Shown: positions 31,101 through 53,006, numbered from the stretch's first letter. The stretch: 64,000 nt of DNA from Flagellimonas sp. (GCF_965601775.1 NZ_OZ271837.1:2374990-2438989), one strand, 5' to 3'. The notes: a model not told the origin generated them from the sequence alone. Translations and numbers: made by a program.

Positions 31101-34100
31101 CGGTGGATGTCTCCTCACAACCATTTTGATCTCTTGCGGTAAGAATAATGGTTTGATTAGTACCGTTGTCAATCACCTCGAACGTATTGCTGGTTTGGAA
31201 ATTCGTTCCATCAAACTGAAGGGTCCCATCATTCATGCTATAGGTATACGGCCCTGTACCTGTAGCCGTACCGGTACCGTCCCCATTAGTATCCGTAAAA
31301 ATGGTAATGGTTGCTGTACTAAATTGATTACTGGCAGGATTACAAGTAAAATCGGTATTTATAGCATTTACCTGTAATAAGGTAGGTTCCGTAATCGTAA
31401 CATCCCCTGACCTGTCCGTACATCCTCTATCCGATACAACCTCAACCTGATAAGTTCCAGGTACTAGGTTGTCGAAAATAGCTGTAGGCTGTGGACCAGC
31501 AATTATCGTCGTTGTGGACCCATCGTATAAAATATAACTTAAAGGCGTATCCGTATCACTTCCGGGCTGTAATTCTACAGCAATCGTTCCGTCTCCAGCT
31601 CCATTACAGGTCACATCAGTACTCGGGGTGGCCGTAATTATAGGAGTATTAACTGTTGAAACGTTTACAATAGCCTCATCCGTACACAAAGGTGTTGTGT
31701 TAGAGCTTAAATCGGTTACTAAAATATTATAATCCCCCGGTAACACATTGATAAAAGTGTTTGAGCTTTGAGCTGGACCAATATTGGCCAAAGTACCTGC
31801 ATCCCTTAGTTGGAATTCAAAGTTTCCACTTCCTCCGGTAGTATTGACCGTAATAGTTCCGTCACCTGCATTACAAGTAGGCAATGAAGTAGCATCAGCT
31901 GTAATGGCAAAGAAATCAAACACTTCGGCATTTACTGTTGTGGTACATCCATTACCATCCCTTATGGTGATGACATAATTGCCTGGGTTAGGAACCACGA
32001 AATTTGGACTACTTTGGAATCCACTGCCAATATCATATTGGAATGTCGTTTCCGGTGCGGGACCGGTGGTTAAAGGCGCAGTTACGTTGATTTGATACCC
32101 ACTCGTAGCCGTACACTGATTAATTACATCAATTGTAGGAGTTGGAATACCAGGGTCCTGATCAACGGTTGCGGTGGTAAAAGCAGTACATCCGTTAGCA
32201 TCCCTTACATAAAAATCGTAATCTGTAGGATAGGGTGCACCTATTTCAAAAGTGGTATCCGTCGTAAAAGTGGATGGAGCTGGGTCTCCCGTAGGAACGT
32301 ATGCAAATTCATAAGGACCAGTGCTTCCAAATCCTCTTACCGTTACAAAAGCACCTGCATTACAAGTAGCATTCACATTGCTATCAATCGCGATATTAGG
32401 ATTGCTTATTCCAATAAAAACCAAGGTACTGGCACTACAACCCGAAATATCATCTGTAACGATAATTTGATAGTTGCCTGGTGCCAACCCGGTAAACGTA
32501 TCAGCATAAGGAACCGGTTCGTTCGTCAATGAATTTGTAGAAAGGGTTGCTCCGGTATCCGTATTTTCTAAAGTGATAGTAAAATCTCCTGGACTCGGAG
32601 TAATACCATCAACCGTATAGTCAATAGTTCCGTTCCCCGATGTTCCACAAGAAATTGTGTTTGCTGTCGCCGTTACAGTTACTGGATTTGTAGCGGCTAT
32701 TGGGTCAATACGTTCAATGTAAGTACATCCTAGGGCATCTACTACCTCAACAAAATAAGTAACTCCAAAGGTCACAAGACCGGTAACATCAAAAATATCA
32801 TTACCAGGTCCTGTTCCCGGCTGAAATACTGGGTCACCTACTAATCTGAATTGGTATGGAGCGGTTCCCCCTGTGGCCTGTACCCGATACGTAAATGCTG
32901 AGCCAGAACAAACCGGTGGAGGTGTATCTAAAGGAATTAAATCCAATTGATTTTGGTCGATAATAAAATCATCCCGGTCTTCACAACCTTGGGAATCTCG
33001 AGTAACCACAGTATAATTCCCTAAATCCAAGTTGGGGAAATTTACAGTAGTACTGGCAGTTCCAGTTGAAGCGGCAATCAGGGTTCCGGAACCATCATAT
33101 AACTCATAATCGAAAGGTCCGACCCCGTTGTTAATTGTAGTAGAAACAGAACCCAGCACACTTCCCGCAGAACAAACTGCATTGGTCGGTGTTGCCGTAG
33201 CATCCAAAGGAGAACTATTACCTATTGTAACGTCATATACGGGGCTTACACACCCTCTACTATCGCGTATTACAAATCCCGTTTGCAATCCAGGTCCGTA
33301 TCCCGAAAAGATATTTTGAGTACTGAAAGTGACTCCACCATCGTTACTGTATTCGTATGGAGGTACACCTTGAGTTGTATCCGGAATCAACTCCACGATA
33401 CCACTTGTCAAATCACCACACTGCGTATCTGTTCCGACCACGGAACCAGCAATGGTTTCGGGCGGTGTTATGGTTACCACATTGGTTTCGGTGGTACATC
33501 CTTGGCTATCCGTAACTAAAAATTGATACGTTGTGTCTGAAGTTATGGAACCGTCATTGGGAATACTGTAAATAAAGGAATTCCCAGTTATATTATTGCT
33601 ATCGGATGTATAGGGGGCACCATTAATGCTTACTTCATAAATATCGTAATCACCACCGGAAGTGTATCCATTGCTGATATCCACTTGTATTTGAGCTGGG
33701 GGACCAGCACAGTCCAATTCCTGAATTATACTCGCATTGGCCACTACCTGAGGTTCGATTGTTCGAGTTACAGTATCCCGACAATCATTAGCGTCAACAA
33801 CTTCAATGGTATACGTCCCAGGAGTTAGTCCATTAAACGTGTTGCTAGCCCCTAATGGACCTCCATTGATTCTGTATTGATACGGTGCAGCTCCCAACGA
33901 TGCGGTAACCACCAAAGTAGCCGCATTAAAGTTGTCATAACATAAATCGGATGAACCTAAATCCAAAGTTAAGGTGGGTGCATCCAATCGGGTTAACGTA
34001 AAACTGTCGGTAACGGTACACCCGTTGGCATCTGTCACACTTACTTGATATAGACCATCTTGGGAAAGATTAGAAAATACTGATCCATTTTTTGGTCCTC

Positions 34101-37774: not shown

Positions 37775-38293
37775 TCAAACCAATGCCTCCAAGGTTTTTG
37801 ATGCCCTTTTAGATACCGATTTACGTTCATCTTGGGCTAATCGTTTCAAATGTGGAAGAAGCCACCCTTTCAGGTTTTCGTCTTTTTTTGCCCATTTGCC
37901 CAAGGTCTCTATAGTTTGATTCAATACAATCCAATCAGAATGGGTTGCCAAGTTTTCTTTGAGTATTTTTTTTGCACTGGCTTTTTGGGATTCAGATAAG
38001 TCTTTTTCCAACAGTAAAAAAAGTTGGGCCAATGTCCATTTTGTTGAAGCTTGATCAATTTTGGATATTTCATTTAAAAGCCTGTCAACATAAGGCAAAA
38101 CAATGGACTTATCGGCTTTACAAATACGTTTCATCCCATTAGAAACCCGTAGTCGAACTACTTCATCTTTACTGAAATAGCAATTAAAGAAATCGTCAAA
38201 AAGTTTGGGGTTTTGCAATACTTTCTCAACCACCTCGATGGTATTTCCAAGAGAGTTGGGGTGGCCACCTGAAAGTCGTTCTTCAAAACTCAT
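37775..38293 (-). CDS. Hypothetical helical-repeat (HEAT-like) protein
   Basis: LSGGHPNSLGNT, DEVVRLRVSNGMKRI, DWIVLNQTIETL; ATGA overlap with murQ. Confidence 0.6.
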   Translation of the reverse strand: MSFEERLSGGHPNSLGNTIEVVEKVLQNPKLFDDFFNCYFSKDEVVRLRVSNGMKRICKADKSIVLPYVDRLLNEISKIDQASTKWTLAQLFLLLEKDLSESQKASAKKILKENLATHSDWIVLNQTIETLGKWAKKDENLKGWLLPHLKRLAQDERKSVSKRASKTLEALV

Positions 38294-39117
38294 TGTTGCT
38301 TCAGGGCCTCCATGGCTTTTTTAACTGATCCATATTTGATAAGCGCTTTTTCGGCTTCATCATAGCTTAGTGCCAATTCTTCCACCAAATACCTGGTCCC
38401 TCTGTCTACCAGTTTGGTATTGCTTAGCTGCATGTTTACCATCTTATTGCCTTTCACTCTCCCAATACGAATCATCAATGCAGTAGATATCATATTGAGT
38501 ACCATTTTTTGGCTGGTACCACTTTTCATTCTTGTACTGCCAGTTACAAATTCAGGACCGACTACCACCTCAATCGCAATATCACTATCTAAAGCCAAAG
38601 GTGAACCCGGATTGTTGGTGATACCCGCAGTAAGTATTCCTTTATCCTTAGCATCATGGATACCTCCCAAAACATAAGGCGTGGTCCCAGATGCTGCTAT
38701 TCCAACAAGAACGTCGTTGTGATTAATATCATACGCCTCCAAATCCTTCCAGGCTTGTTTGGTATCGTCCTCTGCAAACTCTACAGCCTTTCGTATGGCG
38801 CTATCTCCCCCAGCAATAAGGCCAATAACACGGTCATGCGGCATTCCAAAGGTTGGAGGGATTTCTGAAGCATCCAAAATGCCCAGCCTACCACTCGTAC
38901 CTGCCCCTATATAAAATAAACGTCCTCCTTGTTCAAATCGCTTCGTAGTTTCATCCACTAACCGAGATATGCTGGGAAGAACTTTTTCAACAGCATCAGC
39001 TACCTTTTTGTCCTCATTGTTTATGCTGGAAATAATATCCAAAGTATCCATCTGTTCCAGCTCATCGTAATGAGAGGACTCTTCGGTTATCTTCACATGT
39101 TTTTCATTCACAATCAC
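38290..39117 (-). CDS. murQ: N-acetylmuramic acid 6-phosphate etherase
   Basis: YIGAGTSGRLGILDASEIPPTFG, GIAASGTTPYV, GPEFVTGSTRMKSGTSQKMVLNMIST. Confidence 0.96.
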   Translation of the reverse strand: MIVNEKHVKITEESSHYDELEQMDTLDIISSINNEDKKVADAVEKVLPSISRLVDETTKRFEQGGRLFYIGAGTSGRLGILDASEIPPTFGMPHDRVIGLIAGGDSAIRKAVEFAEDDTKQAWKDLEAYDINHNDVLVGIAASGTTPYVLGGIHDAKDKGILTAGITNNPGSPLALDSDIAIEVVVGPEFVTGSTRMKSGTSQKMVLNMISTALMIRIGRVKGNKMVNMQLSNTKLVDRGTRYLVEELALSYDEAEKALIKYGSVKKAMEALKQQ

Positions 39118-39863
39118 AGTAATTGTAAGTTCATAGTTTTAAAGGCATCAAGTTTGATGTCCCAAGGTTCCAATTCAGTAATCAATACATCAACATCTTC
39201 GACGCCACAAATTTTGTACCGCTGTAAGGACCCAATTTTTTCCGAAATGCAGGGTGAAACTACTTTTCTGGAACTATGGATCATTGCTTTTTTCATTTGA
39301 ACAATTTCCCAATCGAATTCGGTCAGGCCTTGAACTGGATGTATAGAATTAGTCCCCAAAAAGCAAATATCCACTTTTATTTCAGATAACATGTTAATTG
39401 CACTACCCCCAACTGTAATTTGGGAGTCTTTTGAAAGTCGACCTCCGATAAAAATAACGTCAACGTTCGGCTTAGTTAACAATTGAACGGCAATAGGAAG
39501 ACTTGGTGTGAAGCAAGTAAGTTTTATTTTGGTAGGTAGTCTACGAGCCAACTCCAAATTTGTAGTTCCCCCGCTGAGCAAAATAACCTGTCCTTCCTTA
39601 ATTAGGGTTATTGCTTTTTCTGCTATCTGGGATTTCTTCTCAAGCGAATACACTTTTTTCCCAACGGGAGAGTATGTATTAAATCCAAGGGAAACCGCAC
39701 CTCCATGTACTTTTTTGAGCTGGTCTGAATTGTGAAGTTCCTTGATATCACGTCTTACCGTATCAACTGAAACCTTCAACAAATCTGCTATATCCGTAAG
39801 CAATACCCTATTATGGATTCTCACTTCATTAAGAATGAATTGATGTCTTTCTTCCTTTAGCAT
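39114..39863 (-). CDS. DeoR/GlpR family transcriptional regulator
   Basis: MLKEERHQFIL...VSVDTVRRDIKEL..VHGGA; SGGTTN; DICFLG. Confidence 0.93.
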   Translation of the reverse strand: MLKEERHQFILNEVRIHNRVLLTDIADLLKVSVDTVRRDIKELHNSDQLKKVHGGAVSLGFNTYSPVGKKVYSLEKKSQIAEKAITLIKEGQVILLSGGTTNLELARRLPTKIKLTCFTPSLPIAVQLLTKPNVDVIFIGGRLSKDSQITVGGSAINMLSEIKVDICFLGTNSIHPVQGLTEFDWEIVQMKKAMIHSSRKVVSPCISEKIGSLQRYKICGVEDVDVLITELEPWDIKLDAFKTMNLQLL

Positions 39864-39871
39864 ACGGAGCG

Positions 39872-39998
39872 CAAAGTTAAATAAATCTTAAAACGAACTT
39901 TAATTACAGCAAAATACGGCAATTATGACAGAAAAGTACGTAAAAATCGACAAATATTGCAAATAATCGTATTAATTGCTGTTTTTTGCATACATTTG
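39872..39998. promoter_or_regulatory. Divergent promoters (TAACTTTG minus 39872-39879; TACATTTG plus 39991-39998) with two inverted 17-bp operator-like boxes
   Basis: GCAAAATACGGCAATTA (39909-39925) and the reverse complement of 39973-39989 (GCAAAAAACAGCAATTA) match at 15/17. Confidence 0.6.
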
Positions 39999-40043
39999 AA
40001 AAGAGGATTTCGATTTTTTGCAAGAACACTATAGCACACTTAA

Positions 40044-41960
40044 ATGGATTATAATCTACTCGAGGACCGAAAATTTGAGAAAATCCACACCATAATTCAG
40101 GAAAATTCGAATACTGCCTCCCTTTTTGTGGCCAATGAAATAGCAGGCTTAATTCAACAGAAGCAAAAAGAAGGTAAGAAAGCGGTACTTGGATTAGCTA
40201 CTGGCTCCACTCCGACCAAAGTCTACGATTATTTGGTTCAGTTTCATCAGGAAGGAAGGTTGAGCTTTAAAAATGTAATCACCTTCAATCTTGATGAATA
40301 CTATCCTATGGAGCCGAATTCACTACACAGTTATGTTCGGTTTATGAAGGAACATCTTTTCGACCATGTAGATATCGAACCAGAAAACGTTCATATTCCC
40401 GATGGAAATATTTCCTCTGATGAAATACGGGACTATTGCCAAGACTATGAGAGAAAAATTGAGAATGTCGGCGGAATTGATATTCAAATTTTAGGGATTG
40501 GTCGAACCGGCCATATTGGTTTTAACGAACCGGGGTCTGCACTTAACAGTAAAACGCGGCTAATTCGATTAGACCGAGTAACTATACTAGATGCAGCTAG
40601 TGACTTTTTTGGTCAAGAGAACGTTCCTAAGCGTGCCATTACTATGGGGGTTGGTACCATATTGTCTGCCAAAAAAATAATTCTAATGGCATGGGGGGAA
40701 GGAAAAGCCGATGTCATTAGTCAATCGGTAGAGGGTCCGATAAAGGAGTCTATTCCTGCCACATTTTTGCAACACCATCCCAATTGTGATTTCGTATTGG
40801 ACGATGCTTCCTCTTCCAAACTGACACGAGTACAAACGCCATGGTTGGTCACAGAATGCAAATGGGATGATCAATTGATTAAAAGGGCGACTATCTGGCT
40901 TTCAGAGCGCCTAGAAAAGGCCATTCTCAAACTCACCAATGAGGATTACAACGAGTACGGTATGGGAAACCTTGTCGCTGAAGTAGGTTCTGCGGAACAA
41001 ATCAATCTAAAGGTTTTTAATCAGCTCCAGCGTACAATTACAGGTTGGCCAGGTGGTAAACCAAATGCGGATGACAGCCAACGCCCGGAAAGGGGGAACC
41101 CTCATCCAAAGACTTCGTTGATATTTAGTCCACACCCTGATGATGATGTTATTTCCATGGGGGGAACCCTATTACGTTTGGTAGATCAAGGCCATGATGT
41201 CCACATTGCTTATCAGACCTCAGGTAATATTGCTGTTTTTGACGATGAGGTAATTCGCTTTTTGGATTTTGCCGCCACGGTGCAAAAGGACAATGTGGAA
41301 ATGGATAAAAAACTAAAAGAGGTTAGGGCTTTTTTGTCTTCCAAAAAACCAGGTCAAGTGGACAGTGCGGAAATTCAAAATTTTAAAGGACTGATACGAC
41401 GAGGAGAGGCACTAGCTGCTTGTCGTTATTGTGGAGTGGACGAGAAAAATGCACACTTTTTAAACCTCCCTTTTTATGAAACTGGAACGGTTAAGAAGAA
41501 ACCTCATTCCGAAGAAGACATCAAAATCACTTATGATTTGTTGAATAAACTAAAACCTGAGCAAATATTTGCTGCTGGAGATTTATCCGACCCTCATGGT
41601 ACCCATAGAGTTTGCCTAGAAATTATATATCAGGCCATTGAATTATTGAAAAAGAATCGGGCGGAATGGATAAACAATTGCTATGTGTGGCTGTATAGAG
41701 GCGCTTGGCAAGAATGGGAGGTTGCAGATATGGAAATGACCGTACCCATAGGACCTAAAGATATGGCACGAAAGAAAAATGCCATTTTCAAACATCAATC
41801 CCAGAAAGACAGTGCCATGTTCCCTGGAAACGATGAACGCGAGTTTTGGCAAAGAGCCGAACAGCGAAACAAAGAAACCGCTAACCGTTATAACGCCCTA
41901 GGAATGGCCGAATATGAAGCCATGGAGGGGTTCGTGCGGTATCATTTTAATTTTAACTAA
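40044..41960 (+). CDS. nagB: Glucosamine-6-phosphate deaminase fused to a PIG-L/LmbE deacetylase-like domain
   Basis: LGLATGSTP, FNLDEYY, GIGRTGHIGFNEPG; C-terminal SPHPDDDVISMGGT and DLSDPHGTH. Confidence 0.93.
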   Translation: MDYNLLEDRKFEKIHTIIQENSNTASLFVANEIAGLIQQKQKEGKKAVLGLATGSTPTKVYDYLVQFHQEGRLSFKNVITFNLDEYYPMEPNSLHSYVRFMKEHLFDHVDIEPENVHIPDGNISSDEIRDYCQDYERKIENVGGIDIQILGIGRTGHIGFNEPGSALNSKTRLIRLDRVTILDAASDFFGQENVPKRAITMGVGTILSAKKIILMAWGEGKADVISQSVEGPIKESIPATFLQHHPNCDFVLDDASSSKLTRVQTPWLVTECKWDDQLIKRATIWLSERLEKAILKLTNEDYNEYGMGNLVAEVGSAEQINLKVFNQLQRTITGWPGGKPNADDSQRPERGNPHPKTSLIFSPHPDDDVISMGGTLLRLVDQGHDVHIAYQTSGNIAVFDDEVIRFLDFAATVQKDNVEMDKKLKEVRAFLSSKKPGQVDSAEIQNFKGLIRRGEALAACRYCGVDEKNAHFLNLPFYETGTVKKKPHSEEDIKITYDLLNKLKPEQIFAAGDLSDPHGTHRVCLEIIYQAIELLKKNRAEWINNCYVWLYRGAWQEWEVADMEMTVPIGPKDMARKKNAIFKHQSQKDSAMFPGNDEREFWQRAEQRNKETANRYNALGMAEYEAMEGFVRYHFNFN

Positions 41961-41974
41961 AAACTAACTTCTGT

Positions 41975-44953
41975 ATGCGAAAACTGTATGATTATTTGAA
42001 AAAAACAGGGTTCCTGCTCGCGGTGTGTTGCCTTTTGACCTCATCATCCATTTGGTCACAAAGTCAATACACGTTTAATGGAACCGTAACGGAAAGTGGG
42101 ACAAACCTGCCTTTGTCAGGAGCTTCCGTTTTCATTGAAGGTACCTCATTCGGAACAATTTCCGATTTTGACGGTAATTATAGTTTTACCGCTACCTTGG
42201 AACAAGGTTCGGTAAATCTAAGTATTAGTTCCTTAGGATTTACATCACAAAAAATTGCAATTGACCTAGGTTCAAGTCTGGTCATTACCACAGATGTAGT
42301 CCTAGTAGAGGATTTGCTTAGTTTGGATGAAGTGGTAGTAACCGGTAACCCCGTTGGAGTTAACAAAAGAACCTTGGGTAACGCTATTTCTTCTGTAAAA
42401 TCCGAAGATTTGGTAAACAACGGTGCCATAGCTGTAGATCAGGCTATTTCCGGTAAAATTTCTGGAGCTTTGGTACAACAAAACTCCGGTGACCCTGCGG
42501 GTGGTATCAGTATTCGTCTCAGGGGACCAAGCACCGTTTTAGGGAACTCTGACCCACTGTATATTGTTGATGGTATAATTATTAGCAACTCTAGCAACAG
42601 TAATGATTTGGTGGATTTGGGAGGAACGTCCCAAAACCGTTTAGTGGATTTAAATCCAAACGACATTGAACGTATCGAAATCATAAAAGGTGCGGCAGCA
42701 GCGGCAATTTATGGTTCTCGAGCTAGTAATGGTGTCGTTCAAATTTTTACCAAAAAGGGACGAACGGGAACTCCCAAGTTCAATTTTTCAACCAATGTTC
42801 GGGTAAATGAATTGCGGAAGGAAATTGATTACAACACCGTACCTTTGGCCTGGGTAGACCCCTTTGACCGCACCAATCTGGAAACGGTACCCGTGGAGCG
42901 TTTTAATTTTCAAGACGAATTTTTTGAGTCAGGTTTTGGGATTGAAAATTTCCTATCCGTAAGTGGAGGGAACGAGAAGACTTCTTACTACATTTCTGGT
43001 TCTTTCTTGGACAATGAGGGGATAATCAAAAACACGGATTTCCAACGTGTGGGCTTTAAAACCAACATTACTCAAAAAGCATGGGATTGGTTGGAAATTA
43101 ATGCTGGCTTGAATTATACACGAAGTGTGAGCAATGACGTCCCAAATGGAGGTATCAATGCAGCTTACGGAGCCATCACAGGTTTTGTGTTTAGCGATAA
43201 CTCGATAAATCCTAATCCAGATGAGTCGGGTGTATATCCTGTTACCTCTTTATTGGTACCTCGAACCAATCCTTTGGAAGCAGTTGATCGCTTCGACTTT
43301 GGTCAAAAAGTAAACCGGGTAATAACAAGTATAGGTTTAAATGCCCAGATTACGGATAAGCTCAGCGCCAATTATCTCTTGGGACTGGATTTCTTTAATC
43401 AATCCGCAACAGCTTTTATTCCCATCAACAATACCTCCCCTAACGGTGATGGCTTTGCAAGAAGGGCAGATATCAACAACTTTCAATACAACAGCGATTT
43501 AAATTTGGCGTATCAAACGCCAATCACTGAGGATATTGAATCTACAACTACCTTAGGAGGCTCATGGCAGTACGAAGAGTTTGACAGGGTAGCCATAGAA
43601 GCAGATGGTTTAGCCCCGGTTGTGGAAGTTGCCAGTGATGGAAGTATACTAGCCCAAGGCGAAACACGATCGCAAATTTCATATTGGGGTTCTTTCTTGC
43701 AACAGTCCTTTAGTTTTAAAGATAGATTGTATCTCAATGGTGCCGTTCGTTTGGATGGGGCTTCTACTTTTGGTGAAGATGAACGAAATCAATTATATGC
43801 GAAGGCAAGTTTGTCCTATATCATTTCTGAGGAGGATTTTTGGAAAGACACCTTTGGTAATGCCTTTAGCACCTTTAAACTTAGAGGTTCATGGGGTCAG
43901 GCAGGTAACCTGACCGCCTTGTCAGCTTTCCAGAGATTTACTACACTCAATCCATCATCTATAAATGGAACACCCAGTTTGATTCCTGGGACGCAGCAGG
44001 GAGATCTGGATATCGCGCCTGAACGACAAGAGGAAATCGAATTTGGTTTTGACGCAGGATTGTTGGATAATAGAATCGGTATTGAATTCACATACTACAA
44101 ACAAGACGTGACGGATTTACTTTTGCCTCGTGAGTTAGCCTCTTCTACAGGTTTTGGGTCTCGAATTGAAAACGTTGGGGATTTAGAAAATGAAGGTATA
44201 GAGATTTTACTGCGAGGTGCTCCGATAAAAACCAATGATTTTTCCTGGGATATTACGGCTACCTTCTCTCAAAACGAAAATGTAGTTACCCGGGTTGCCG
44301 GTGGGGGACAATTCGCCTTGGCCGGAAGTTTTGCCACCAGTTTTGTGATTGAAGGTGAACCTTTAGGTGTTTTCTTCAGACAATTCTATGCAAGGGAAGC
44401 GGACGGAAGTATTTCTTTGGATGCCGATGGTTTTCCCTTTAGAGGAACAACAGACGAAGGTGCGAGCTCAAAGGTAATCGGAGACCCTAACCCGGATTGG
44501 TTTGGTTCATTGATCAACGAGTTCGCCTACAAGAACTTTAAACTTCGTATTCAACTGGACGCCGTACAAGGTTTTGATGTCTTTAACTGGAACCGCCGAT
44601 TATTGGACAATGTAATCTTCGGAGGAGGATTCAATGTGGGTCAGGAGTTATTGGGCAATCGCCTTAAAGGTTTTGGTGGTGCCCAAGCAGGTATTTTTGA
44701 GGAATTTGTAGAAGACGGTTCTTTTGTAAAATTGCGGGAACTAGCTTTGAGTTATGATTTTAAACCTCCGTTTGAAGGGGTGGATAACATTCAAATAAGC
44801 TTAGTGGGACGAAATTTAATATCATGGGATGACTATTCAGGATGGGACCCAGAGATAAATACAGCAGGACAGAGCAATGGTGTTAGAGGATTCGATTTTG
44901 CAGGGGTCCCTATACCAAGAACCTATCAGTTAGGAGTCAATGTAAGTTTCTAA
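41975..44953 (+). CDS. SusC/RagA TonB-linked outer membrane protein
   Basis: SDPLYIVDG, LNPNDIERIEIIKGAAAAAIYGSRASNGVVQIFTKKG, PRTYQLGVNVSF. Confidence 0.95.
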   Translation: MRKLYDYLKKTGFLLAVCCLLTSSSIWSQSQYTFNGTVTESGTNLPLSGASVFIEGTSFGTISDFDGNYSFTATLEQGSVNLSISSLGFTSQKIAIDLGSSLVITTDVVLVEDLLSLDEVVVTGNPVGVNKRTLGNAISSVKSEDLVNNGAIAVDQAISGKISGALVQQNSGDPAGGISIRLRGPSTVLGNSDPLYIVDGIIISNSSNSNDLVDLGGTSQNRLVDLNPNDIERIEIIKGAAAAAIYGSRASNGVVQIFTKKGRTGTPKFNFSTNVRVNELRKEIDYNTVPLAWVDPFDRTNLETVPVERFNFQDEFFESGFGIENFLSVSGGNEKTSYYISGSFLDNEGIIKNTDFQRVGFKTNITQKAWDWLEINAGLNYTRSVSNDVPNGGINAAYGAITGFVFSDNSINPNPDESGVYPVTSLLVPRTNPLEAVDRFDFGQKVNRVITSIGLNAQITDKLSANYLLGLDFFNQSATAFIPINNTSPNGDGFARRADINNFQYNSDLNLAYQTPITEDIESTTTLGGSWQYEEFDRVAIEADGLAPVVEVASDGSILAQGETRSQISYWGSFLQQSFSFKDRLYLNGAVRLDGASTFGEDERNQLYAKASLSYIISEEDFWKDTFGNAFSTFKLRGSWGQAGNLTALSAFQRFTTLNPSSINGTPSLIPGTQQGDLDIAPERQEEIEFGFDAGLLDNRIGIEFTYYKQDVTDLLLPRELASSTGFGSRIENVGDLENEGIEILLRGAPIKTNDFSWDITATFSQNENVVTRVAGGGQFALAGSFATSFVIEGEPLGVFFRQFYAREADGSISLDADGFPFRGTTDEGASSKVIGDPNPDWFGSLINEFAYKNFKLRIQLDAVQGFDVFNWNRRLLDNVIFGGGFNVGQELLGNRLKGFGGAQAGIFEEFVEDGSFVKLRELALSYDFKPPFEGVDNIQISLVGRNLISWDDYSGWDPEINTAGQSNGVRGFDFAGVPIPRTYQLGVNVSF

Positions 44954-44969
44954 TTCAAAAACAAAGACG

Positions 44970-46301
44970 ATGAAAAATTCAATAAAATACTTTATCATTT
45001 GTGTTTCACTTACAATAGGACTTTTTTCTTGTGAAACTGATTTTGACAACCCAAATGCAGCCACCGAAGACCAGGTATTTTCTTCGAGGGAAGGAATTTT
45101 TGCGGCCGCAGTCGGTCTACAGCAATTGTATTCTACCACGGGCGTGCGCTGGATTGTGGAGACCCCGGCTATAACAACCCGAGAAGGAGGCATCACTACA
45201 ACCTTTCAAAACATGATTGAGTTGGAAGATGGGGGGACTGCCCTTCCTAATTTTAATTCCAATGTACAGGGATTGTGGGCAACCATGCTACGGGTGGTAA
45301 AAATAGCTGAAGATATAGAGGCGAATGCAGCCAATATTGATTTGGACCCTGGAACCCAAAGTGGTTTAATTGCGCATGCTAAGCTTTTCAAGGCACTAGC
45401 CATAGGGAGTTTAGCCCAGAATTATGAGCAAGTGGTGGTAGAGACCAGCAATGACAACGATGCTACTTTTGTTCCAAGAAACCAAGGGTTTCAAACCGCA
45501 ATCACCTTGCTTACGGAGGCTGCGGCTCAAATATCTGGCACAGCACCCTCTGCAGAGTTTATCAATGGAGTTACTTTGGGGAATATTGACCTTGTAAACA
45601 CCATTGCCGCATACACAGCAAGGTATAACCTGTTTGCAGGGAATTACGATGCTGCCATCGCCGCAGCAAATACAGTGGACTTGACGTCAACTTCAATTTT
45701 TGCTTACGACACCCAAAACCAAAATCCGATTTGGGCCAGAATCATTCAAAATGATGCTCCGAACTTTAAGCCAAGAGATAATTTTGGATTACCCTCAGAA
45801 TTTGTTTTTGATCCTGCGGACGGAAGATTAGCCTTCTATCTCATTCCACTGGACGAGACGAATCAGAATGGTTTGCCTATTGAAGATGTGGCTGGTTTCT
45901 TTAATGAAATAACAGAACCTATTCCAGTGTATTTACCAGATGAGATGAACCTAATTATTGCTGAGGCCAACCTTAGACTAGGTACTCCAAATTTGGGAGC
46001 AGCTACAGCAGCCCTGAACGAGGTGCTTACCGATACGGATGACCCTTTCGAGGTTAACGCCAATGTAGCTGCCTATTCAGGAGCCAACACTGCAGAGGCC
46101 TTGCTTGACGAAGTATATCGCAATAGAAGAGCAGAGCTTCTGTTTACCGGAATGAGTTTGGAGGATAGCCGAAGGTTTGGAAGACCCGAGCCTAGCGGGG
46201 CGTCCATGAATTTTGCCGAGGAAAGGAATCGAAATTTCTATCCTTATCCAGATTTGGAAAGAAATAGTAATCCGAATACACCGGCTGACCCTGCAATTTA
46301 A
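44970..46301 (+). CDS. SusD/RagB nutrient-binding lipoprotein
   Basis: Lipobox LFSC; follows susC; YRNRRAELLFTG..LEDSRRF...PYPDLERNSNPN. Confidence 0.9.
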   Translation: MKNSIKYFIICVSLTIGLFSCETDFDNPNAATEDQVFSSREGIFAAAVGLQQLYSTTGVRWIVETPAITTREGGITTTFQNMIELEDGGTALPNFNSNVQGLWATMLRVVKIAEDIEANAANIDLDPGTQSGLIAHAKLFKALAIGSLAQNYEQVVVETSNDNDATFVPRNQGFQTAITLLTEAAAQISGTAPSAEFINGVTLGNIDLVNTIAAYTARYNLFAGNYDAAIAAANTVDLTSTSIFAYDTQNQNPIWARIIQNDAPNFKPRDNFGLPSEFVFDPADGRLAFYLIPLDETNQNGLPIEDVAGFFNEITEPIPVYLPDEMNLIIAEANLRLGTPNLGAATAALNEVLTDTDDPFEVNANVAAYSGANTAEALLDEVYRNRRAELLFTGMSLEDSRRFGRPEPSGASMNFAEERNRNFYPYPDLERNSNPNTPADPAI

Positions 46302-46343
46302 TTTGAAGCTTTTTGAATTTGTTAGTTTAAGTTAATTAAGCCT

Positions 46344-46379
46344 AAAGGCCTACTTTTAATCTTCAGGTAGGCCTTTTTT
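46344..46379 (+). terminator. Terminator/attenuator hairpin after susD
   Basis: AAAGGCCTAC...GTAGGCCTTTTTT. Confidence 0.75.
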
Positions 46380-46385
46380 ATTCTT

Positions 46386-47900
46386 ATGAAATTCGTTTTT
46401 CAGTACATCCTCTGTCTTTGCTTTTTGGCTTCCTGTGCTTCACATAGGGGTCTAAAAGCTATGCCCGATGAGGAATTCAGAGGGGTATGGATTGCTACTG
46501 TCGTTAATATTGATTGGCCAAAGAATGGAAATGATACAGCTTCCAAAAAAAAGCAAGACTTTCTTGAAATATTGGATTTCTACGAAAACTTAAACTTCAA
46601 TGCGGTAGTTGTACAGGTGAGAACGGCTGGTGATGCCTTCTATCCTAGCCAACAAGCTCCATGGTCAAAATACTTGACCGGCCAACAGGGAAAAGCACCT
46701 AAAGATTTCGAAGACCCTCTAGCCTGGATGATAAATGAAACGCATGATAGGGGAATGGAATTCCATGCCTGGCTAAATCCCTACCGAGCTACTTTTGATA
46801 TGGACACCCTAGGTTTAGACGCTACCCATGATTTCAACCAGCATAGGGATTGGATGATTAAATATGGAAAAAAGTTCTACTACAATCCTGGTTTACCCGA
46901 GGTTAGGGACAAGTTCGCTTTGGTCGTAAAGGAATTGGTGGAGAATCATGATATTGACGCTATCCATTTTGACGATTATTTCTATCCGTATAAAATTACA
47001 GGTGAGGTTTTTAATGATTCCCTTGCCTTCCAATCCAAAAAATTACCGAACCAAAGCTTGGATGAATGGAGAAGAAGTAATGTGGATTCGTTGGTTAGGC
47101 AGGTACACACTACCATAAAAAAAAGCAAACCTTGGGTGCAGTTCGGAATCAGTCCATTTGGAGTTTGGAGAAACAAGAATGTAGACCCCAAAGGTTCCGA
47201 TACCAAGGCCGGGCAAACCAATTATGATGATCTTTATGCCAATCCCTTACTTTGGATGGAGAAAGGATGGATTGATTATATAGCTCCGCAAGCCTATTGG
47301 AGCATGGATTACCCACCTGCTTCCCACCGAAGTGTTTCCGAATGGTGGTCAAAGCAGAAAGGGGCCGTAAACCTATACATGGGCAATGGACCATACAAAA
47401 TCAAAAACAATAGCGATAAGGCCTGGAACAACTGCAATGAAATTCCCAAACAACTTAAATTTTCAAGGTTGTTACCTAAAGTAAATGGCAACATTTTTTT
47501 CAGTGCAAAGTCATTATTGGGTAAGCATCCTAAAGCAGTCAAAAAAATCAGGAAAATTTATGCTGGGCCGGTATCCAATCCAACCTTAAAAAAACCATTT
47601 AAAAGAACATTAGAAAAACCAAAAGTTGACATAAAAAAAATAGCAAATAACAGAATACGTTTAAACCTAAATCATTCCGATAGCATATCTCGATTTGCAT
47701 TATTCTATGTTGACAGGAGGATGAGCAACGACAAATTTCCCTTGTTTAAAAAAAGCTATCTTTCGTCAAAAGAAGATAGCATTCAAGTTGAAATGCCCAT
47801 CACTGGCAAAATGAAAAGACAGGGACTACGAATAGTAATCCAAGATGTCTATGGCAACAGAACCCAACCCCTTATCCTAAATAAGAAACAGCTCCAATGA
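46386..47900 (+). CDS. Family 10-like glycosyl hydrolase (GHL10/DUF187, YngK/DigH-like) lipoprotein
   Basis: Lipobox LASC; EFRGVWIATVVNIDWP, MEFHAWLNPYR, IHFDDYFYP, FGISPFGVWR, DYIAPQAYW. Confidence 0.88.
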   Translation: MKFVFQYILCLCFLASCASHRGLKAMPDEEFRGVWIATVVNIDWPKNGNDTASKKKQDFLEILDFYENLNFNAVVVQVRTAGDAFYPSQQAPWSKYLTGQQGKAPKDFEDPLAWMINETHDRGMEFHAWLNPYRATFDMDTLGLDATHDFNQHRDWMIKYGKKFYYNPGLPEVRDKFALVVKELVENHDIDAIHFDDYFYPYKITGEVFNDSLAFQSKKLPNQSLDEWRRSNVDSLVRQVHTTIKKSKPWVQFGISPFGVWRNKNVDPKGSDTKAGQTNYDDLYANPLLWMEKGWIDYIAPQAYWSMDYPPASHRSVSEWWSKQKGAVNLYMGNGPYKIKNNSDKAWNNCNEIPKQLKFSRLLPKVNGNIFFSAKSLLGKHPKAVKKIRKIYAGPVSNPTLKKPFKRTLEKPKVDIKKIANNRIRLNLNHSDSISRFALFYVDRRMSNDKFPLFKKSYLSSKEDSIQVEMPITGKMKRQGLRIVIQDVYGNRTQPLILNKKQLQ

Positions 47901-48379
47901 AAGATATGCTCGTCCGACTTATGAATCTACCCGATGTAAATGGGGATGCAAATAACCTCTTTACGACAGAGAACATTGTTTTTAGAAAACCCATTGCTGC
48001 GGAAAAAAGTTTGGTTTTAAAATGGGTAGAGAAAAACTTCAGCATGAACTGGAAAGATGAAGTGGATGTAGCATTTTCAAATGTACCTGTCAACTGTTTT
48101 ATTGCACAGCGAGAACAGGAGATTCTAGGTTTTGCCTGTTTTGAATGTTCTGCGAAAAACTTCTTCGGTCCTACTGGGGTTATTCCTTCGGAAAGAGGCA
48201 AGAATGTGGGTAAAATACTTTTGATTAAAGCCTTGGAAGCATTAAAAGAAATGGGATATGCATATGCGATTATCGGGGGCGTTGGACCTGTTGATTATTA
48301 TGAAAAAACAGTGAATGCAAAAGTTATTGAGGGCTCAGAAAAAAGTATCTATCAGAACCTTTTAAAACAGAAGAAGTAA
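47897..48379 (+). CDS. GNAT family N-acetyltransferase
   Basis: FFGPTGVIPSERGKNVGKILLIKAL acetyl-CoA motif A. Confidence 0.85.
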   Translation: MKDMLVRLMNLPDVNGDANNLFTTENIVFRKPIAAEKSLVLKWVEKNFSMNWKDEVDVAFSNVPVNCFIAQREQEILGFACFECSAKNFFGPTGVIPSERGKNVGKILLIKALEALKEMGYAYAIIGGVGPVDYYEKTVNAKVIEGSEKSIYQNLLKQKK

Positions 48380-49660
48380 ATGAAAGTGGCCGAAAAAGAT
48401 AAAGGGGCTTGGGCTTGGATTCCAACCTTATACTTTACGCAAGGAATTCCCTATGTCCTTGTAGTTATGGTCTCTGTTATCATGTACAAACGCTTAGGAA
48501 TCAACAATTCGGATATTGGCCTTTACACCAGTTGGCTGTACTTGCCTTGGGTCATAAAACCCCTTTGGAGCCCCATAGTTGACCTCAACGGAACCAAAAG
48601 AAAATGGTTTTTGGGTATGCAGATGTTGATTGCCCTTTCGTTTCTTGGGATAGGTTTTTTTCTACCCACCAATGCGTTTTTTACCATTACGTTGGCCTTC
48701 TTTTGGATGTCCGCTTTTGCTTCCGCGACCAATGATATTGCCTCTGACGGGTATTACATGATTGGTCTTTCTCAAAAAAAACAAGCTTTTTTTATTGGGC
48801 TCAGAAGTACGTTCTACAGATTGGCCATGGTTACTGCACAGGGGCTTTTGGTGATACTAGCTGGTTTTCTGGAAAAAGAATATGGCGATAACACCAAAGC
48901 CTGGTCCATCACCATGATTTGTACAGCAGGTCTTATGTTTGTGCTTACACTCATCAACTTTTTCGTTACTCCAAAATTTGAAGACCCTAAAAGTGACAAG
49001 AATGAGAGACCCGGGAGTTTTTCAGAAGTTTTTGTGACTTTCTTTCAAAAGAAACAAATTGGTATAGCCATCCTCTTTATTCTTTTGTATAGGCTTGGTG
49101 AATCCCAGTTGGTTAAAATGGCCTCCCCTTTTCTTCTCGATGAAAAACAGCTTGGAGGGCTAAACCTCAGTACCGAAGCGGTTGGGACCATTTATGGAAC
49201 TGTGGGTATTATCATGCTTTCATTGGGTGGTATAATTGGGGGCATTCTAATTTCAAGGGACGGGCTCAAAAAATGGATGCTTCCTATGCTCCTTGCCCTT
49301 AATCTTCCCAACGCTTTATATGCTTTGCTTGCTTTCACAAAAACCCAAAGTTTGATAGCTGTGGTAGGAACAGTGGTCTTGGAACAATTTGGGTATGGAT
49401 TTGGTTTCGCGGCATTCTTGATTTTTCTCATTTATATTGCCGAAGGAGTATCTAAAACTTCACATTATGCAATTGCCACAGGATTTATGGCCCTCGGAAT
49501 GATGTTACCTGGAATGCTTAGTGGTTATATCCAGGAATGGTTGGGGTATCCCGGTTTCTTCACTTGGGTCGTTATTGCTGCTTTGCCAGCGTTCTTGTTG
49601 CTTCCTTTCCTAAAATATCCGCCAGAGTATGGCAAGAAATCAGCAGATTCCAATGAATAA
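48380..49660 (+). CDS. AmpG-like MFS muropeptide permease
   Basis: WAWIPTLYFTQGIP, LPWVIKPLWSPIVD, SATNDIASDGYY, TSHYAIATGFMAL. Confidence 0.85.
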   Translation: MKVAEKDKGAWAWIPTLYFTQGIPYVLVVMVSVIMYKRLGINNSDIGLYTSWLYLPWVIKPLWSPIVDLNGTKRKWFLGMQMLIALSFLGIGFFLPTNAFFTITLAFFWMSAFASATNDIASDGYYMIGLSQKKQAFFIGLRSTFYRLAMVTAQGLLVILAGFLEKEYGDNTKAWSITMICTAGLMFVLTLINFFVTPKFEDPKSDKNERPGSFSEVFVTFFQKKQIGIAILFILLYRLGESQLVKMASPFLLDEKQLGGLNLSTEAVGTIYGTVGIIMLSLGGIIGGILISRDGLKKWMLPMLLALNLPNALYALLAFTKTQSLIAVVGTVVLEQFGYGFGFAAFLIFLIYIAEGVSKTSHYAIATGFMALGMMLPGMLSGYIQEWLGYPGFFTWVVIAALPAFLLLPFLKYPPEYGKKSADSNE

Positions 49661-51272
49661 AGGCCTGAAACAGCATATAAAACTAAGTTCGACCCAAAAT
49701 TTTAGTCTAAAACAAAAGGTAGGGCAATTGTTCATGATTGCGGTTTTCATAAACGATTCTGAAGAAAACGTTCAGGAAACGGAAAACCTGATTAAAGAAA
49801 ACCATATTGGGGCTTTGTGTTTTTTTCACAGCAGAGCAAGTGCAGCCACAAATTTCGAGGGTAAGAAAAAAGTGGTTTACAATGAAAACAGTTACGAACG
49901 ACTTGTCTCATTAATCGATAGATACCAAAAGGCGTCCCCTACTCCACTTTTAATCACTATGGATGCCGAATGGGGACTTGCCATGCGTATTGAAAATACG
50001 CCACAATATCCTTATGCTTTGACCCTTGGGGCCCTTCAGAATAGAGAAGACTTAATACACCAAGTAGGGTACAACATAGGTCAGGATTGTCTTGAGGCTG
50101 GAATTCATTGGAATCTCGCTCCGGTACTTGATATCAACAACAATCCTGAAAATCCGGTTATTGGATACCGGTCGTTTGGAGATGACAAAGAAAAAGTCAC
50201 CCAAAACGCAAAAGCTTTTATAGCAGGAATGCGTGAAGCAGGTGTTCTAAATTCGCTTAAGCATTTTCCCGGTCATGGGGATACTCATACCGACTCGCAT
50301 CTTGCCCTACCAATTATAGATAAATCAAAAGAAAATCTTTTGGAAAATGAGATGTACCCCTTCCAAGAGCTAATGCACGAAGAAGCTGATTCCATCATGA
50401 TAGGACACCTCTCCGTTCCCTCTTTAGACCCCTCAGGAAAGCCCGCTACTCTATCCAAAATCATTTTGACCAGCCTTCTGAGAGAAAAATTAGGCTATAA
50501 TGGGGTAATTATCTCAGATGCCATGAATATGCATGCGGTATCCAAAAGCTTTGAGGAAAAGGGAGCTCTGGAATTAGCCGCGTTTAATGCCGGAATGGAC
50601 ATATTTTGTTTTTCGGAACATCCGAAAGAAGCCATTGACAAAATTGTTTCTGAGAACAAGGTTAAGCGGATTGAATCCAGTTTTGAACGGGTTTGGGAAT
50701 TAAAGAAAAAAACCTTCAACCAGTCGAATGACATTCCTAAAACTAAGAGTACTCTTAAAAAATTGAATACCGAAATAGCAAAAGCCTGTTTAACTGAACT
50801 CTTTGGTAGTGGCAAAAAATTGGTAGAAACATCATCTCAGGATTTGGAACAAATTGTTTTTGGCAAACCAAAATTAAGTGTCTTTCCTCGGTATTTGGAA
50901 CAAGAGTCAAAAGTCCAGCCCTCGCGGATAAATGACATGGAATCGGAGCGAGTTCAAGATTCATTTGAGAACCAAAAAACAAAAGTACTTTCTGTCTTTC
51001 CACCCTCGGTGAAACCTAAAAACGGATTTGGGTTTACAAAAGAAGAGCTGGAGACAATGAATCAAATGCTAAAAAAAGGCAGTTGCATTTTGTATCTATT
51101 TGGCAATCCCCTTTTTCTACATACACTGCATATAAGTGCACAAAACTCATACATCCTAATGTATCAGGACTTTCCTGAATTTCAAGAAGTGGCCTACTCC
51201 CATTTCAAGGGAGAACTTGTAGCTGAGGGCAGGCTTCCCTTTCAACTAAAAACGAATTTGCATGAAAACTGA
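49653..51272 (+). CDS. nagZ: GH3 beta-N-acetylglucosaminidase (NagZ-like), no signal peptide
   Basis: MDAEWG, APVLDIN, RSFG, KHFPGHGDTHTDSH catalytic loop, IISDAM nucleophile; start set to MNKGLK at 49653. Confidence 0.82.
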   Translation: MNKGLKQHIKLSSTQNFSLKQKVGQLFMIAVFINDSEENVQETENLIKENHIGALCFFHSRASAATNFEGKKKVVYNENSYERLVSLIDRYQKASPTPLLITMDAEWGLAMRIENTPQYPYALTLGALQNREDLIHQVGYNIGQDCLEAGIHWNLAPVLDINNNPENPVIGYRSFGDDKEKVTQNAKAFIAGMREAGVLNSLKHFPGHGDTHTDSHLALPIIDKSKENLLENEMYPFQELMHEEADSIMIGHLSVPSLDPSGKPATLSKIILTSLLREKLGYNGVIISDAMNMHAVSKSFEEKGALELAAFNAGMDIFCFSEHPKEAIDKIVSENKVKRIESSFERVWELKKKTFNQSNDIPKTKSTLKKLNTEIAKACLTELFGSGKKLVETSSQDLEQIVFGKPKLSVFPRYLEQESKVQPSRINDMESERVQDSFENQKTKVLSVFPPSVKPKNGFGFTKEELETMNQMLKKGSCILYLFGNPLFLHTLHISAQNSYILMYQDFPEFQEVAYSHFKGELVAEGRLPFQLKTNLHEN

Positions 51273-51930
51273 AATAATAGACTCTTGGGAAAAAAATGCC
51301 AAAGAATGGAGTAAAATTATCCAAAATCACGGTATAGCCTCTAGAAAATTTACAAACAAAGCCATTCTTGATAGCGTGAATCAAATTGAAGCTGCAAAGG
51401 TGGCCGATTTTGGCTGTGGAGAAGGGTGGTTAACCCGAGAAATAAGCAAAATGGGGAGGGATGCCTATGGATTTGATGCGATACAAGCCTTACTTGACGA
51501 TGCTGAACAGAAAGGACACGGGCACTTTCAGCAATTGACCTTTGAGGATATGATTTCGGGAAAACCCATTCCTCATAGCCCATTCGATTTGGGGATTTTT
51601 AACTTCTGCATTTACCTAAAAGATGGTCTTAATGAGTTGATTGAAAATACTCTAAAAGCAATCAATCCGAATGGATGTATCCTTATCCAAACATTACATC
51701 CATTTTTCCTGATTCAAAATGGGATGGAATATAAAGGACAATGGATTTCTGATTCATGGAAAGGACTCCCGGGTAATTTTATTGAAGGCCATTCGTGGTA
51801 TGCAAGAACCTTTGAAGATTGGATTGCAGTTTTATCTTCCTTTAAAGGAGTAGATTTCACCATCAAGGAAATAACAAATGATGAAGGACAGCCTATTTCA
51901 CTTATCATCCAAATTCAGAAGTCCCGATGA
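51262..51930 (+). CDS. Class I SAM-dependent methyltransferase
   Basis: VADFGCGEGWL motif I; overlaps both neighbouring genes. Confidence 0.88.
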   Translation: MKTEIIDSWEKNAKEWSKIIQNHGIASRKFTNKAILDSVNQIEAAKVADFGCGEGWLTREISKMGRDAYGFDAIQALLDDAEQKGHGHFQQLTFEDMISGKPIPHSPFDLGIFNFCIYLKDGLNELIENTLKAINPNGCILIQTLHPFFLIQNGMEYKGQWISDSWKGLPGNFIEGHSWYARTFEDWIAVLSSFKGVDFTIKEITNDEGQPISLIIQIQKSR

Positions 51931-53006
51931 AGGAATACAAAGTCTTGGGTATGATGTCAGGGACCTCATTGGATGGTCTGGATTTGGCTTTTTGCCGCTT
52001 CTCCAAGAGTGACCAGAAATGGAATTTTTCAATAGAAAAGACCACAGCAATTTCCTATGACACGACCTGGAAAAATCGATTAAAACACGCCATTCACTTA
52101 AGTGATAAGGAGCATGATACTCTGGACCACGAATATGGCGTTTGGCTGGGTAAACAAGCCAAACAATTCTTGGAAGATGCCCAGGAAGAAGTGGATTTCA
52201 TAGCCAGTCATGGTCATACTTCCCATCATAGACCTGAGGAAGGTTTTACTTTTCAGTTGGGCAATGGGCAGGAATTGGCCAATGCTTCGGGTCAAAAAGT
52301 AATCTGTGACTTTCGAACAAAAGATGTAAAATTAGGAGGGCAAGGAGCACCTTTGGTACCTATTGGTGACCATTTGCTTTTTGGAAAATATGATTTTTGC
52401 TTGAATCTGGGAGGAATCAGCAATGTTTCCTTTGTAAAAGAGGGTAAAAGAAAAGCCTTGGATATTGGAATGGCCAATATGCCGTTGAACCATATTACAC
52501 AGAAAATTAACCTGGAATATGACGAAAATGGTCAATTGGCGCAAAGTGGAAAACTTCTTCCAGAACTCAAAACAGCCTTGGACAATTTGGAATACTACAC
52601 CCTTCCGCATCCAAAATCCACGGGGTATGAATGGTTTCTAGCCGATGTGGTTCCGTTAATTGAAAACTCGGAAGGAAGTGTGCCGGATTTGCTACATACC
52701 CTGATTCACCACAATTGTGAGCAAATAGCATCGGAAATTGCAAAATTCAGAACTAAATCGAATAATACCATGTTTGTCACCGGTGGTGGCGCATTCAATT
52801 CATTCTTTATGGAAACCCTACAACAGAAACTCGGAAATTCTTTTACATTAAAGATTCCGAACAAAACGCTAATTGCCTTTAAGGAAGCTTTGGTTTTTGC
52901 ATTAATGGGTGTCCTACGGGAAGAAAACCAAACCAACATTTTTGCGTCGGTTACAGGAGCAAGGGAAAATAGCTGTAGCGGAGAAGTTTTTTTTCCTAAC
53001 GTGTAA
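51927..53006 (+). CDS. anmK: Anhydro-N-acetylmuramic acid kinase
   Basis: LGMMSGTSLDGLD, ASHGHT, DFRTKDVKLGGQGAPLVP, NLGGISN, GGGAFN, KEALVFA. Confidence 0.95.
   Translation: MKEYKVLGMMSGTSLDGLDLAFCRFSKSDQKWNFSIEKTTAISYDTTWKNRLKHAIHLSDKEHDTLDHEYGVWLGKQAKQFLEDAQEEVDFIASHGHTSHHRPEEGFTFQLGNGQELANASGQKVICDFRTKDVKLGGQGAPLVPIGDHLLFGKYDFCLNLGGISNVSFVKEGKRKALDIGMANMPLNHITQKINLEYDENGQLAQSGKLLPELKTALDNLEYYTLPHPKSTGYEWFLADVVPLIENSEGSVPDLLHTLIHHNCEQIASEIAKFRTKSNNTMFVTGGGAFNSFFMETLQQKLGNSFTLKIPNKTLIAFKEALVFALMGVLREENQTNIFASVTGARENSCSGEVFFPNV

Follow-up and report, generated by a model that had tools for sequence, protein, structure and literature searches.

A SusC/SusD importer apparently merged into the peptidoglycan-sugar recycling operon of Flagellimonas sp.

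Genes of the locus

A 64,000-nt stretch of DNA from Flagellimonas sp. (the window; all positions below are counted from its first letter) contains, between 38290 and 53006, a set of genes for the recovery of cell-wall sugars that includes a SusC/SusD pair. We think it probable that these genes make up a single peptidoglycan-sugar recycling operon with a SusC/SusD importer module merged in, and that this module takes up wall fragments from outside the cell. An earlier note on this DNA had named eleven genes here, in two divergent units headed by deoR and nagB. All eleven were recovered, tightly packed, by an open reading frame (ORF) map combined with Pfam and NCBIfam profile scans of the window proteins; they are listed with the control region between the units and with one further gene:

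37775-38293, minus strand: small HEAT-repeat protein, 172 aa; weak HEAT/HEAT_2 matches; last gene of the deoR-murQ transcription unit
38290-39117, minus strand: MurQ, N-acetylmuramic acid (MurNAc) 6-phosphate etherase; TIGR00274 equivalog 320.4 bits against a cut-off of 302, NF003915 376 bits
39114-39863, minus strand: DeoR-family repressor; HTH_DeoR and DeoRC domains
39864-40043, no strand: divergent control region, 180 nt; TTGCAA and GCAAWW repeats, Bacteroidota-type -7 box
40044-41960, plus strand: long NagB, glucosamine 6-phosphate deaminase fused to a PIG-L/LmbE-type deacetylase domain; PF01182 and PF02585
41975-44953, plus strand: SusC-type TonB-dependent outer-membrane transporter; TIGR04056 570.5 bits against a cut-off of 368
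44970-46301, plus strand: SusD-family lipoprotein, predicted surface-exposed; lipobox Cys21, fold search on a model
46386-47900, plus strand: GHL10 lipoprotein; PF02638 245 bits
47897-48379, plus strand: small cytoplasmic GNAT acetyltransferase; PF00583 26 bits
48380-49660, plus strand: AmpG-like permease of the major facilitator superfamily; AmpG models are the best NCBIfam matches
49629-51272, plus strand: GH3 beta-N-acetylglucosaminidase of NagZ type, 547 aa with an extra C-terminal region; PF00933 262 bits
51262-51930, plus strand: cytoplasmic class I S-adenosylmethionine-dependent methyltransferase; Methyltransf_23/25/11
51927-53006, plus strand: AnmK; NF007144 equivalog 494 bits against 436, PF03702 217 bits

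Overlaps of 4 nt join murQ to deoR, GHL10 to GNAT and the methyltransferase gene to anmK; nagZ and the methyltransferase gene overlap by 11 nt, and GNAT and ampG abut. The ampG/nagZ overlap is 32 nt as called, or 8 nt if nagZ begins at its second Met (49653), which is the likely start. The only gaps in the plus-strand unit are those of 14 nt between nagB and susC, 16 nt between susC and susD, and 84 nt between susD and GHL10. The murQ stop is overlapped by 4 nt by the HEAT-repeat ORF, a gene absent from the earlier list that probably belongs to the minus-strand operon. It has one copy in the genome, lies beside murQ in 12 related loci by tblastn (11 by ORF labelling) and is conserved in the closest relatives only. 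The plus-strand unit ends at a convergent Bcr/CflA efflux gene (53012).

SusC also carries the TIGR04057 signature (48.3 bits against 46.2) and CarboxypepD_reg and Plug domains. SusD scores just below the cut-off of Pfam SusD_RagB (22.1 against 23.1 bits). An AlphaFold model of SusD, built from 25 orthologues (predicted local distance difference test 80.5, predicted template-modelling score 0.83), found SusD-family structures as all of its best Foldseek matches (TM-score 0.55-0.68, probability 1.0); on this model we regard the SusD fold as confirmed. Its lipobox cysteine, Cys21, is followed by ETDFDNPN, and the motif C-E/D-T-D/E/N-F, with one to three acidic residues at positions +2 to +6, follows the lipobox in each of the 72 SusD orthologues scored. 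The GHL10 lipobox, LASC, is followed by ASHRG, without acidic residues; no D or E occurs at +2 to +6 in any of the 25 GHL10 orthologue N-termini scored by the lipobox pattern, and 11 further orthologues missed by the pattern likewise have no acidic residues, as judged by eye. The lipoprotein export signal (LES) of Bacteroides and Capnocytophaga is a run of acidic residues behind the lipidated cysteine, and lipoproteins without it face the periplasm (PMC6222051). Because SusD has such a signal and GHL10 has none, SusD is predicted to be surface-exposed and GHL10 probably faces the periplasm. Judged from the translations, GHL10 is the only secreted protein encoded in 38290-53006 besides SusC and SusD, and no signal peptide is apparent in NagZ, AnmK, MurQ, NagB, the GNAT or the methyltransferase.

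The earlier note had connected GHL10 to peptidoglycan cleavage through a family member, Escherichia coli DigH, which degrades denuded glycans (PMC12288456). The connection is stronger than was claimed. The PF02638 match spans profile positions 1-310 of 311, and residues 21-394 (374 residues) are about 50% identical to the catalytic domain of Cwp19 (PDB 5oq2, E 4.4e-98), with a common HFDDYFYP segment. Peptidoglycan lytic transglycosylase/muramidase activity of the Cwp19 GHL10 domain has been shown by experiment, and the enzyme acts on peptidoglycan to release 1,6-anhydro-muropeptides as well as products with reducing ends (PMC6016235). By analogy, lytic transglycosylase chemistry of GHL10 in the periplasm would yield the disaccharide of N-acetylglucosamine (GlcNAc) and 1,6-anhydro-MurNAc (anhMurNAc).

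Among the cytoplasmic enzymes, the long NagB matches PRK02122 at 1057 bits and TIGR00502 at 260.8 bits against 236.9, and its PIG-L/LmbE domain is the obvious candidate for deacetylation of GlcNAc 6-phosphate. The only PDB sequence matches of the AmpG-like permease are AmpG proteins, over the full length (E 4.5e-23). The GH3 translation contains KHFPGHG-x4-DSH, KHFPGHGDTHTDSH, an instance of KH[FI]PG[HL]G-x4-D[ST]H, which we take to define the Asp-His dyad motif of NagZ. The genome, a single 3.94-Mb contig, holds one copy each (tblastn) of ampG, anmK, murQ, GHL10, long nagB, GNAT and the methyltransferase gene. Because its only copies of ampG, anmK, murQ and GHL10 are here, self-recycling must use this operon, through which the cell recovers its own wall sugars; to call the locus dedicated to scavenging, as had been done, was an overstatement.

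The genome has no recognisable cytoplasmic AmpD, its sole Amidase_2 protein carrying a lipoprotein signal, and no Mpl above the curated cut-off. Since no cytoplasmic AmpD was recognised, stem peptides are probably removed in the periplasm and the AmpG traffic is probably a peptide-free disaccharide, which agrees with the lack of any peptide-handling gene in the locus. Other wall-related genes elsewhere in the genome encode NamZ, an LdcA-type S66 peptidase, an Amidase_3 protein and a BadF-type kinase beside pfk and gap. At C1:1792523-1795077 of the same genome the Amidase_2 lipoprotein (AmiD-like), a small exported protein and a 488-aa exported protein are encoded head to tail; the last of these looks like a zinc carboxypeptidase, from an HxxE-type motif picked out by eye, and the cluster is possibly a periplasmic unit for stripping stem peptides. 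Within C1:1500568-1508411 the Amidase_3 gene lies near one for a 969-aa fusion of GH3 and beta-lactamase domains, resembling the architecture of Rhodothermus marinus Nag3 discussed in PMC6987092.

Recurrence of the importer beside wall-sugar genes

We mapped the window proteins onto 77 loci with SusD orthologues (56-93% identity), which place the window in Flagellimonas/Muricauda, among the marine Flavobacteriaceae; counts refer to the 57 loci with full 10-kb flanks. In 40 of these, murQ or anmK lies within 10 kb of the SusD gene, and in 27 GHL10, ampG, nagZ, anmK and murQ are found together. By our own arithmetic, two single-copy genes of a 4-Mb genome would lie this close by chance in about 1% of cases, a figure to be read with the reservation that relatives are not independent. 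The association of SusC/SusD with wall-sugar genes noticed earlier in the window is repeated among Flavobacteriaceae and Saprospiraceae in no fewer than five gene orders. The full merged operon is present in Flagellimonas, Croceitalea, Aquimarina and Ascidiimonas; Maribacter and others have deoR divergent from susC-susD-methyltransferase-anmK-symporter-murQ, the symporter being of the sodium-symporter superfamily (SSF). A third order, susC-susD-murQ-nagZ-like, occurs in L026, L033, L076 and G010, with long nagB next in L026 and L076. A fourth is the five-gene set deoR-susC-susD-murQ-anmK of G082, in which anmK is the second copy of that genome. In the fifth, from a Saprospiraceae metagenome-assembled genome, nagB-susC'-susD'-SSF-susC-susD is divergent from anmK-GHL10-deoR-murQ-GNAT-ampG. 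The two tandem SusC/SusD pairs of that genome, with the SSF symporter between them, show 64/61% and 44/41% identity to the pair in the window, which suggests two classes or sizes of ligand. Remoter SusC/SusD homologues, of about 43% identity, are still linked to murQ/anmK. The arrangement is not due to chance, because orthologous loci of many genera repeat it, and this comparison supports a functional tie of SusC/SusD to the catabolism of anhMurNAc or MurNAc.

Related genera offer a view of how the locus was assembled. In surroundings that match those of the window locus, Euzebyella and Pareuzebyella each have a recycling cluster that lacks SusC/SusD. In Euzebyella it reads GSDH / murQ-deoR divergent from nagB-GHL10-ampG-nagZ-anmK-bcr; Pareuzebyella has the same cluster minus GHL10, its anmK being found on that contig at a distance of about 170 kb. 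Both genera carry deoR-susC-susD-methyltransferase at a separate place (L074, L022), so that each has two DeoR paralogues, one per module, which share about 65% identity; their identity to the single DeoR of the window is about 55%. Compared with these arrangements, the window locus is a merger of a deoR-susC-susD-methyltransferase module with the recycling operon; in Flagellimonas the importer has come to lie between nagB and GHL10, and the methyltransferase gene between nagZ and anmK. Among 120 other genera of the family that were sampled, AnmK was found in 114 and a SusD orthologue in 4, which makes SusC/SusD a patchy accessory on a housekeeping pathway.

deoR and the methyltransferase gene are the two most constant companions of the SusC/SusD pair. 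deoR lies beside susC, or beside nagB-susC, in 48 of the 57 loci. The methyltransferase gene is present in 47, often directly after susD, and persists in loci that have no further peptidoglycan gene close by. The structure nearest to the methyltransferase (E 6.7e-28) is that of a putative methyltransferase, 3e8s, itself uncharacterised; neither an atlas look-up, a PDB search nor the names of homologues, all of them generic, gave a clue to its substrate. GNAT stands between GHL10 and ampG in 16 of the 57 loci and beside murQ and ampG in Saprospiraceae; it has no sequence relative in the PDB, and the atlas look-up returned nothing specific. GlmA of Clostridium acetobutylicum reportedly re-acetylates fragments bearing glucosamine, and one might speculate, by analogy, that the GNAT does the same.

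The deoR-nagB control region contains a TAnnTTTG -7 box, TACATTTG, at about 39991-39998. Across 55 orthologous intergenic regions the density of TTGCAA is 7.2 per kb, 19-fold above the genome-wide 0.38 per kb, and its 87 copies compare with 3.6 +/- 2 in shuffles. Only two 180-nt stretches in the genome have at least seven GCAAWW words, one being the deoR-nagB region. We regard the TTGCAA/GCAAWW repeats as candidate DeoR operators. The other GCAAWW-dense stretch (genome positions 800370-800580) lies at the junction of two coding frames, and a search of the genome by GCAAWW density named no regulon member. A scan with the sigma-70 consensus found fewer sites than in shuffles and was dropped, as this consensus does not apply to Bacteroidota.

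The neighbouring segment at 28195-36507 (minus strand) encodes a giant protein of 2770 aa with SprB repeats and a CHU_C/Por_Secre_tail type IX secretion signal. It is probably a gliding-motility surface adhesin and appears unrelated to the locus.

Proposed route and rival explanations

One can envision the following sequence of events. Soluble glycan fragments of peptidoglycan, released from other bacteria by turnover, lysis, lysozyme or phage action, would be captured by surface-exposed SusD and pulled through SusC with TonB energy. In the periplasm they would join the cell's own turnover products; amidases encoded elsewhere would cut off the stem peptides, and GHL10 would cut the peptide-free strands into GlcNAc-anhMurNAc, to be imported by the AmpG-like permease. 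NagZ would then split the disaccharide in the cytoplasm, AnmK would make MurNAc 6-phosphate, MurQ would convert this to GlcNAc 6-phosphate and D-lactate, and the NagB-PIG-L fusion would deacetylate and deaminate GlcNAc 6-phosphate to fructose 6-phosphate. The model for the middle steps is E. coli, whose AmpG carries GlcNAc-anhMurNAc and whose AnmK phosphorylates anhMurNAc after NagZ has removed GlcNAc. DeoR is probably the sugar-phosphate sensor of the locus; responding to a compound such as MurNAc 6-phosphate or GlcNAc 6-phosphate, it would control both divergent transcripts. As an outer-membrane importer is sensible only for material from outside the cell, the bacterium probably draws nourishment from the shed wall fragments of other bacteria as well, and the ligand of SusC/SusD is very probably a MurNAc-containing wall fragment. 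It is tempting to go one step further and to propose, tentatively, that this SusC/SusD clade is the missing outer-membrane importer for peptide-free glycan or anhydro-MurNAc fragments, with the methyltransferase, and in part the GNAT, possibly tailoring modified foreign sugars.

Several points weigh against this interpretation. The support for the ligand is comparative rather than direct, and the SusD fold search gave no hint of it, identity to all solved SusD proteins being 12-16%. No MurNAc gene lies within 10 kb of the SusD gene in 17 of the 57 loci; the five genomes checked among these have murQ and anmK elsewhere. The rule by which SusD and GHL10 were assigned to opposite faces of the membrane is empirical and comes from Bacteroides and Capnocytophaga, not from this genus. 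Two of the proteins score below their model cut-offs, the AmpG-like permease with TIGR00901 (187.7 bits against 350, E 2.8e-55) and the NagZ-type enzyme with NF003740 (178 bits against 207). The route to fructose 6-phosphate that had been described as established stands for AnmK and MurQ, both above their equivalog cut-offs, but cytoplasmic AmpD was not found and neither was NagA, for which the complete genome gave nothing above the cut-off (best 27.7 bits against 225); as proposed, the last steps rest on the PIG-L domain of the long NagB. Neither the methyltransferase nor the GNAT fits anywhere in the known pathway. Finally, 38290-53006 encodes neither a surface endo-enzyme nor an extra surface glycan-binding lipoprotein, and the locus alone therefore cannot attack intact sacculi. 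For want of a surface endo-enzyme, the substrate is likely to be soluble, largely peptide-free glycan fragments and not intact prey walls; prey, which the earlier note had offered as a source, is not indicated.

The sole genomic copies of ampG, anmK, murQ and GHL10, and the related genera that run the cluster without SusC/SusD, would also suit a locus serving self-recycling only, in which SusC/SusD recaptures leaked fragments of the cell's own wall, or imports something unrelated and is merely co-located. We consider this unlikely. A TonB-dependent importer with a surface lid takes extracellular ligands, and once outside, own and foreign fragments are indistinguishable; mere co-location is contradicted by the independence of the gene orders, at least five in number and including the minimal deoR-susC-susD-murQ-anmK.

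A chitin-related function deserves mention, since nagB heads the operon and GH3 enzymes of the NagZ type also cleave chitobiose. SusC/SusD would then import chitin oligosaccharides or GlcNAc-rich glycans, and the MurNAc genes would share the operon through convergence at GlcNAc 6-phosphate. A precedent exists in Caulobacter crescentus, for which a passage of PMC13046382, citing Eisenbeis 2008, mentions a TonB-dependent receptor for GlcNAc and chitin oligomers. However, the Pfam and NCBIfam scans found no GH18, GH19 or GH20 in the window locus, no GH18 or GH20 chitin enzyme is among the genes identified in the variant loci, and GHL10 is a peptidoglycan-cleaving family (PMC6016235). As the minimal loci dispense with nagB and nagZ and keep only the MurNAc-specific murQ and anmK beside the transporter, a chitin or GlcNAc ligand is disfavoured, and we hold it to be highly improbable.

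The earlier note itself had envisaged a predatory or necromass locus; in such a scheme a surface GHL10 would cut intact foreign sacculi and SusC/SusD would import the products. Saprospiraceae, some of which prey on bacteria, carry the orthologous association. In zymograms, moreover, GHL10 enzymes lyse whole Micrococcus cells (PMC6016235). Nevertheless, a GHL10 added for foraging is not borne out and the scheme is very unlikely, as GHL10 and its orthologues lack acidic residues after the lipid-attachment cysteine and are predicted to be periplasmic, GHL10 is part of the recycling cluster of Euzebyella that has no SusC/SusD, and DigH, the characterised Gram-negative member, acts in its own periplasm on septal denuded glycans (PMC12288456).

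Implications and comparison with known systems

In the sea, as in sediments and guts, peptidoglycan makes up a large store of organic carbon and nitrogen under constant renewal. If the importer reading is correct, bacterial cell wall is a genuine SusC/SusD substrate in marine Flavobacteriia and Saprospiria. The locus also illustrates how a catabolic polysaccharide utilisation locus (PUL) can come about, through an importer module joining a housekeeping operon for recycling. The clade associated with murQ/anmK is a concrete candidate for the outer-membrane import step and could be a marker gene for the use of bacterial necromass in metagenomes or metaproteomes. To our knowledge GHL10 is not a CAZy family, and PUL surveys based on carbohydrate-active enzymes may have missed such loci, whose key hydrolase it is. 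In the full-text literature searched we found no experimental description of a SusC/SusD locus for peptidoglycan, nor any account of how wall fragments pass the outer membrane of Gram-negative scavengers. Peptidoglycan-targeting families are reported to be under-represented in PULs (PMC6499787). A PUL from a woodchip bioreactor labelled 'peptidoglycan' was set aside, its label resting on a GT51 neighbour only, and a paper on laminarin use by Maribacter merely mentions a GH3 gene beside anmK.

The closest functional analogue is the salvage operon of Tannerella forsythia (Tanf_08345-08385), which comprises lytB, ampG, namZ1/ybbC, murT, murK and murQ with the regulator GppX, and through which a member of the Bacteroidota lives on exogenous muropeptides via AmpG and MurT-MurK-MurQ (PMC5388701, PMC7670621, PMC5790795). 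In that operon, as proposed here, exogenous muropeptides or MurNAc enter the cytoplasm by AmpG and/or MurT and proceed to MurQ. MurT is a MurNAc transporter of the sodium-symporter superfamily (PMC5790795), and the SSF symporter of the Maribacter-type and Saprospiraceae variants takes its position. However, although T. forsythia is the scavenger studied most thoroughly, its published operon lists no outer-membrane transporter and no SusC/SusD, and the terms SusC, SusD and TonB are absent from the text of PMC5388701. In T. forsythia MurK is present and AnmK absent, and as a MurNAc auxotroph the organism salvages to build its wall, whereas the window locus, with AnmK, GHL10, NagZ, long NagB, DeoR, GNAT and methyltransferase, points to catabolism; it has no MurT or MurK beside MurQ, and NamZ is encoded elsewhere in the genome.

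Recycling in E. coli (AmpG, NagZ, AmpD, AnmK, MurQ, NagA and NagB, with DigH) follows the same inner-membrane and cytoplasmic sugar steps, but its genes are scattered and include no outer-membrane importer, whereas those of the window lie in one operon with SusC/SusD. That cytoplasmic AmpD, Mpl and NagA were not found here suggests a sugar-only, peptide-free traffic. Cwp19, which GHL10 resembles in the catalytic domain, is a surface autolysin of the Gram-positive Clostridioides difficile, anchored by CWB2 repeats (PDB 5oq2; PMC6016235); the window GHL10 is a predicted outer-membrane lipoprotein, extended at its C-terminus by about 110 uncharacterised residues.

With canonical PULs of the Sus paradigm the locus shares the adjacent SusC and SusD, co-transcribed glycoside hydrolases, a local regulator and an LES-bearing SusD. 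It differs from them in lacking a surface endo-glycanase and any additional glycan-binding protein at the surface, in being governed by DeoR in place of a hybrid two-component, SusR or extracytoplasmic-function system, and in feeding a downstream pathway that is housekeeping wall recycling. The locus is best seen as an uptake system for oligosaccharides or fragments rather than as one that degrades sacculi.

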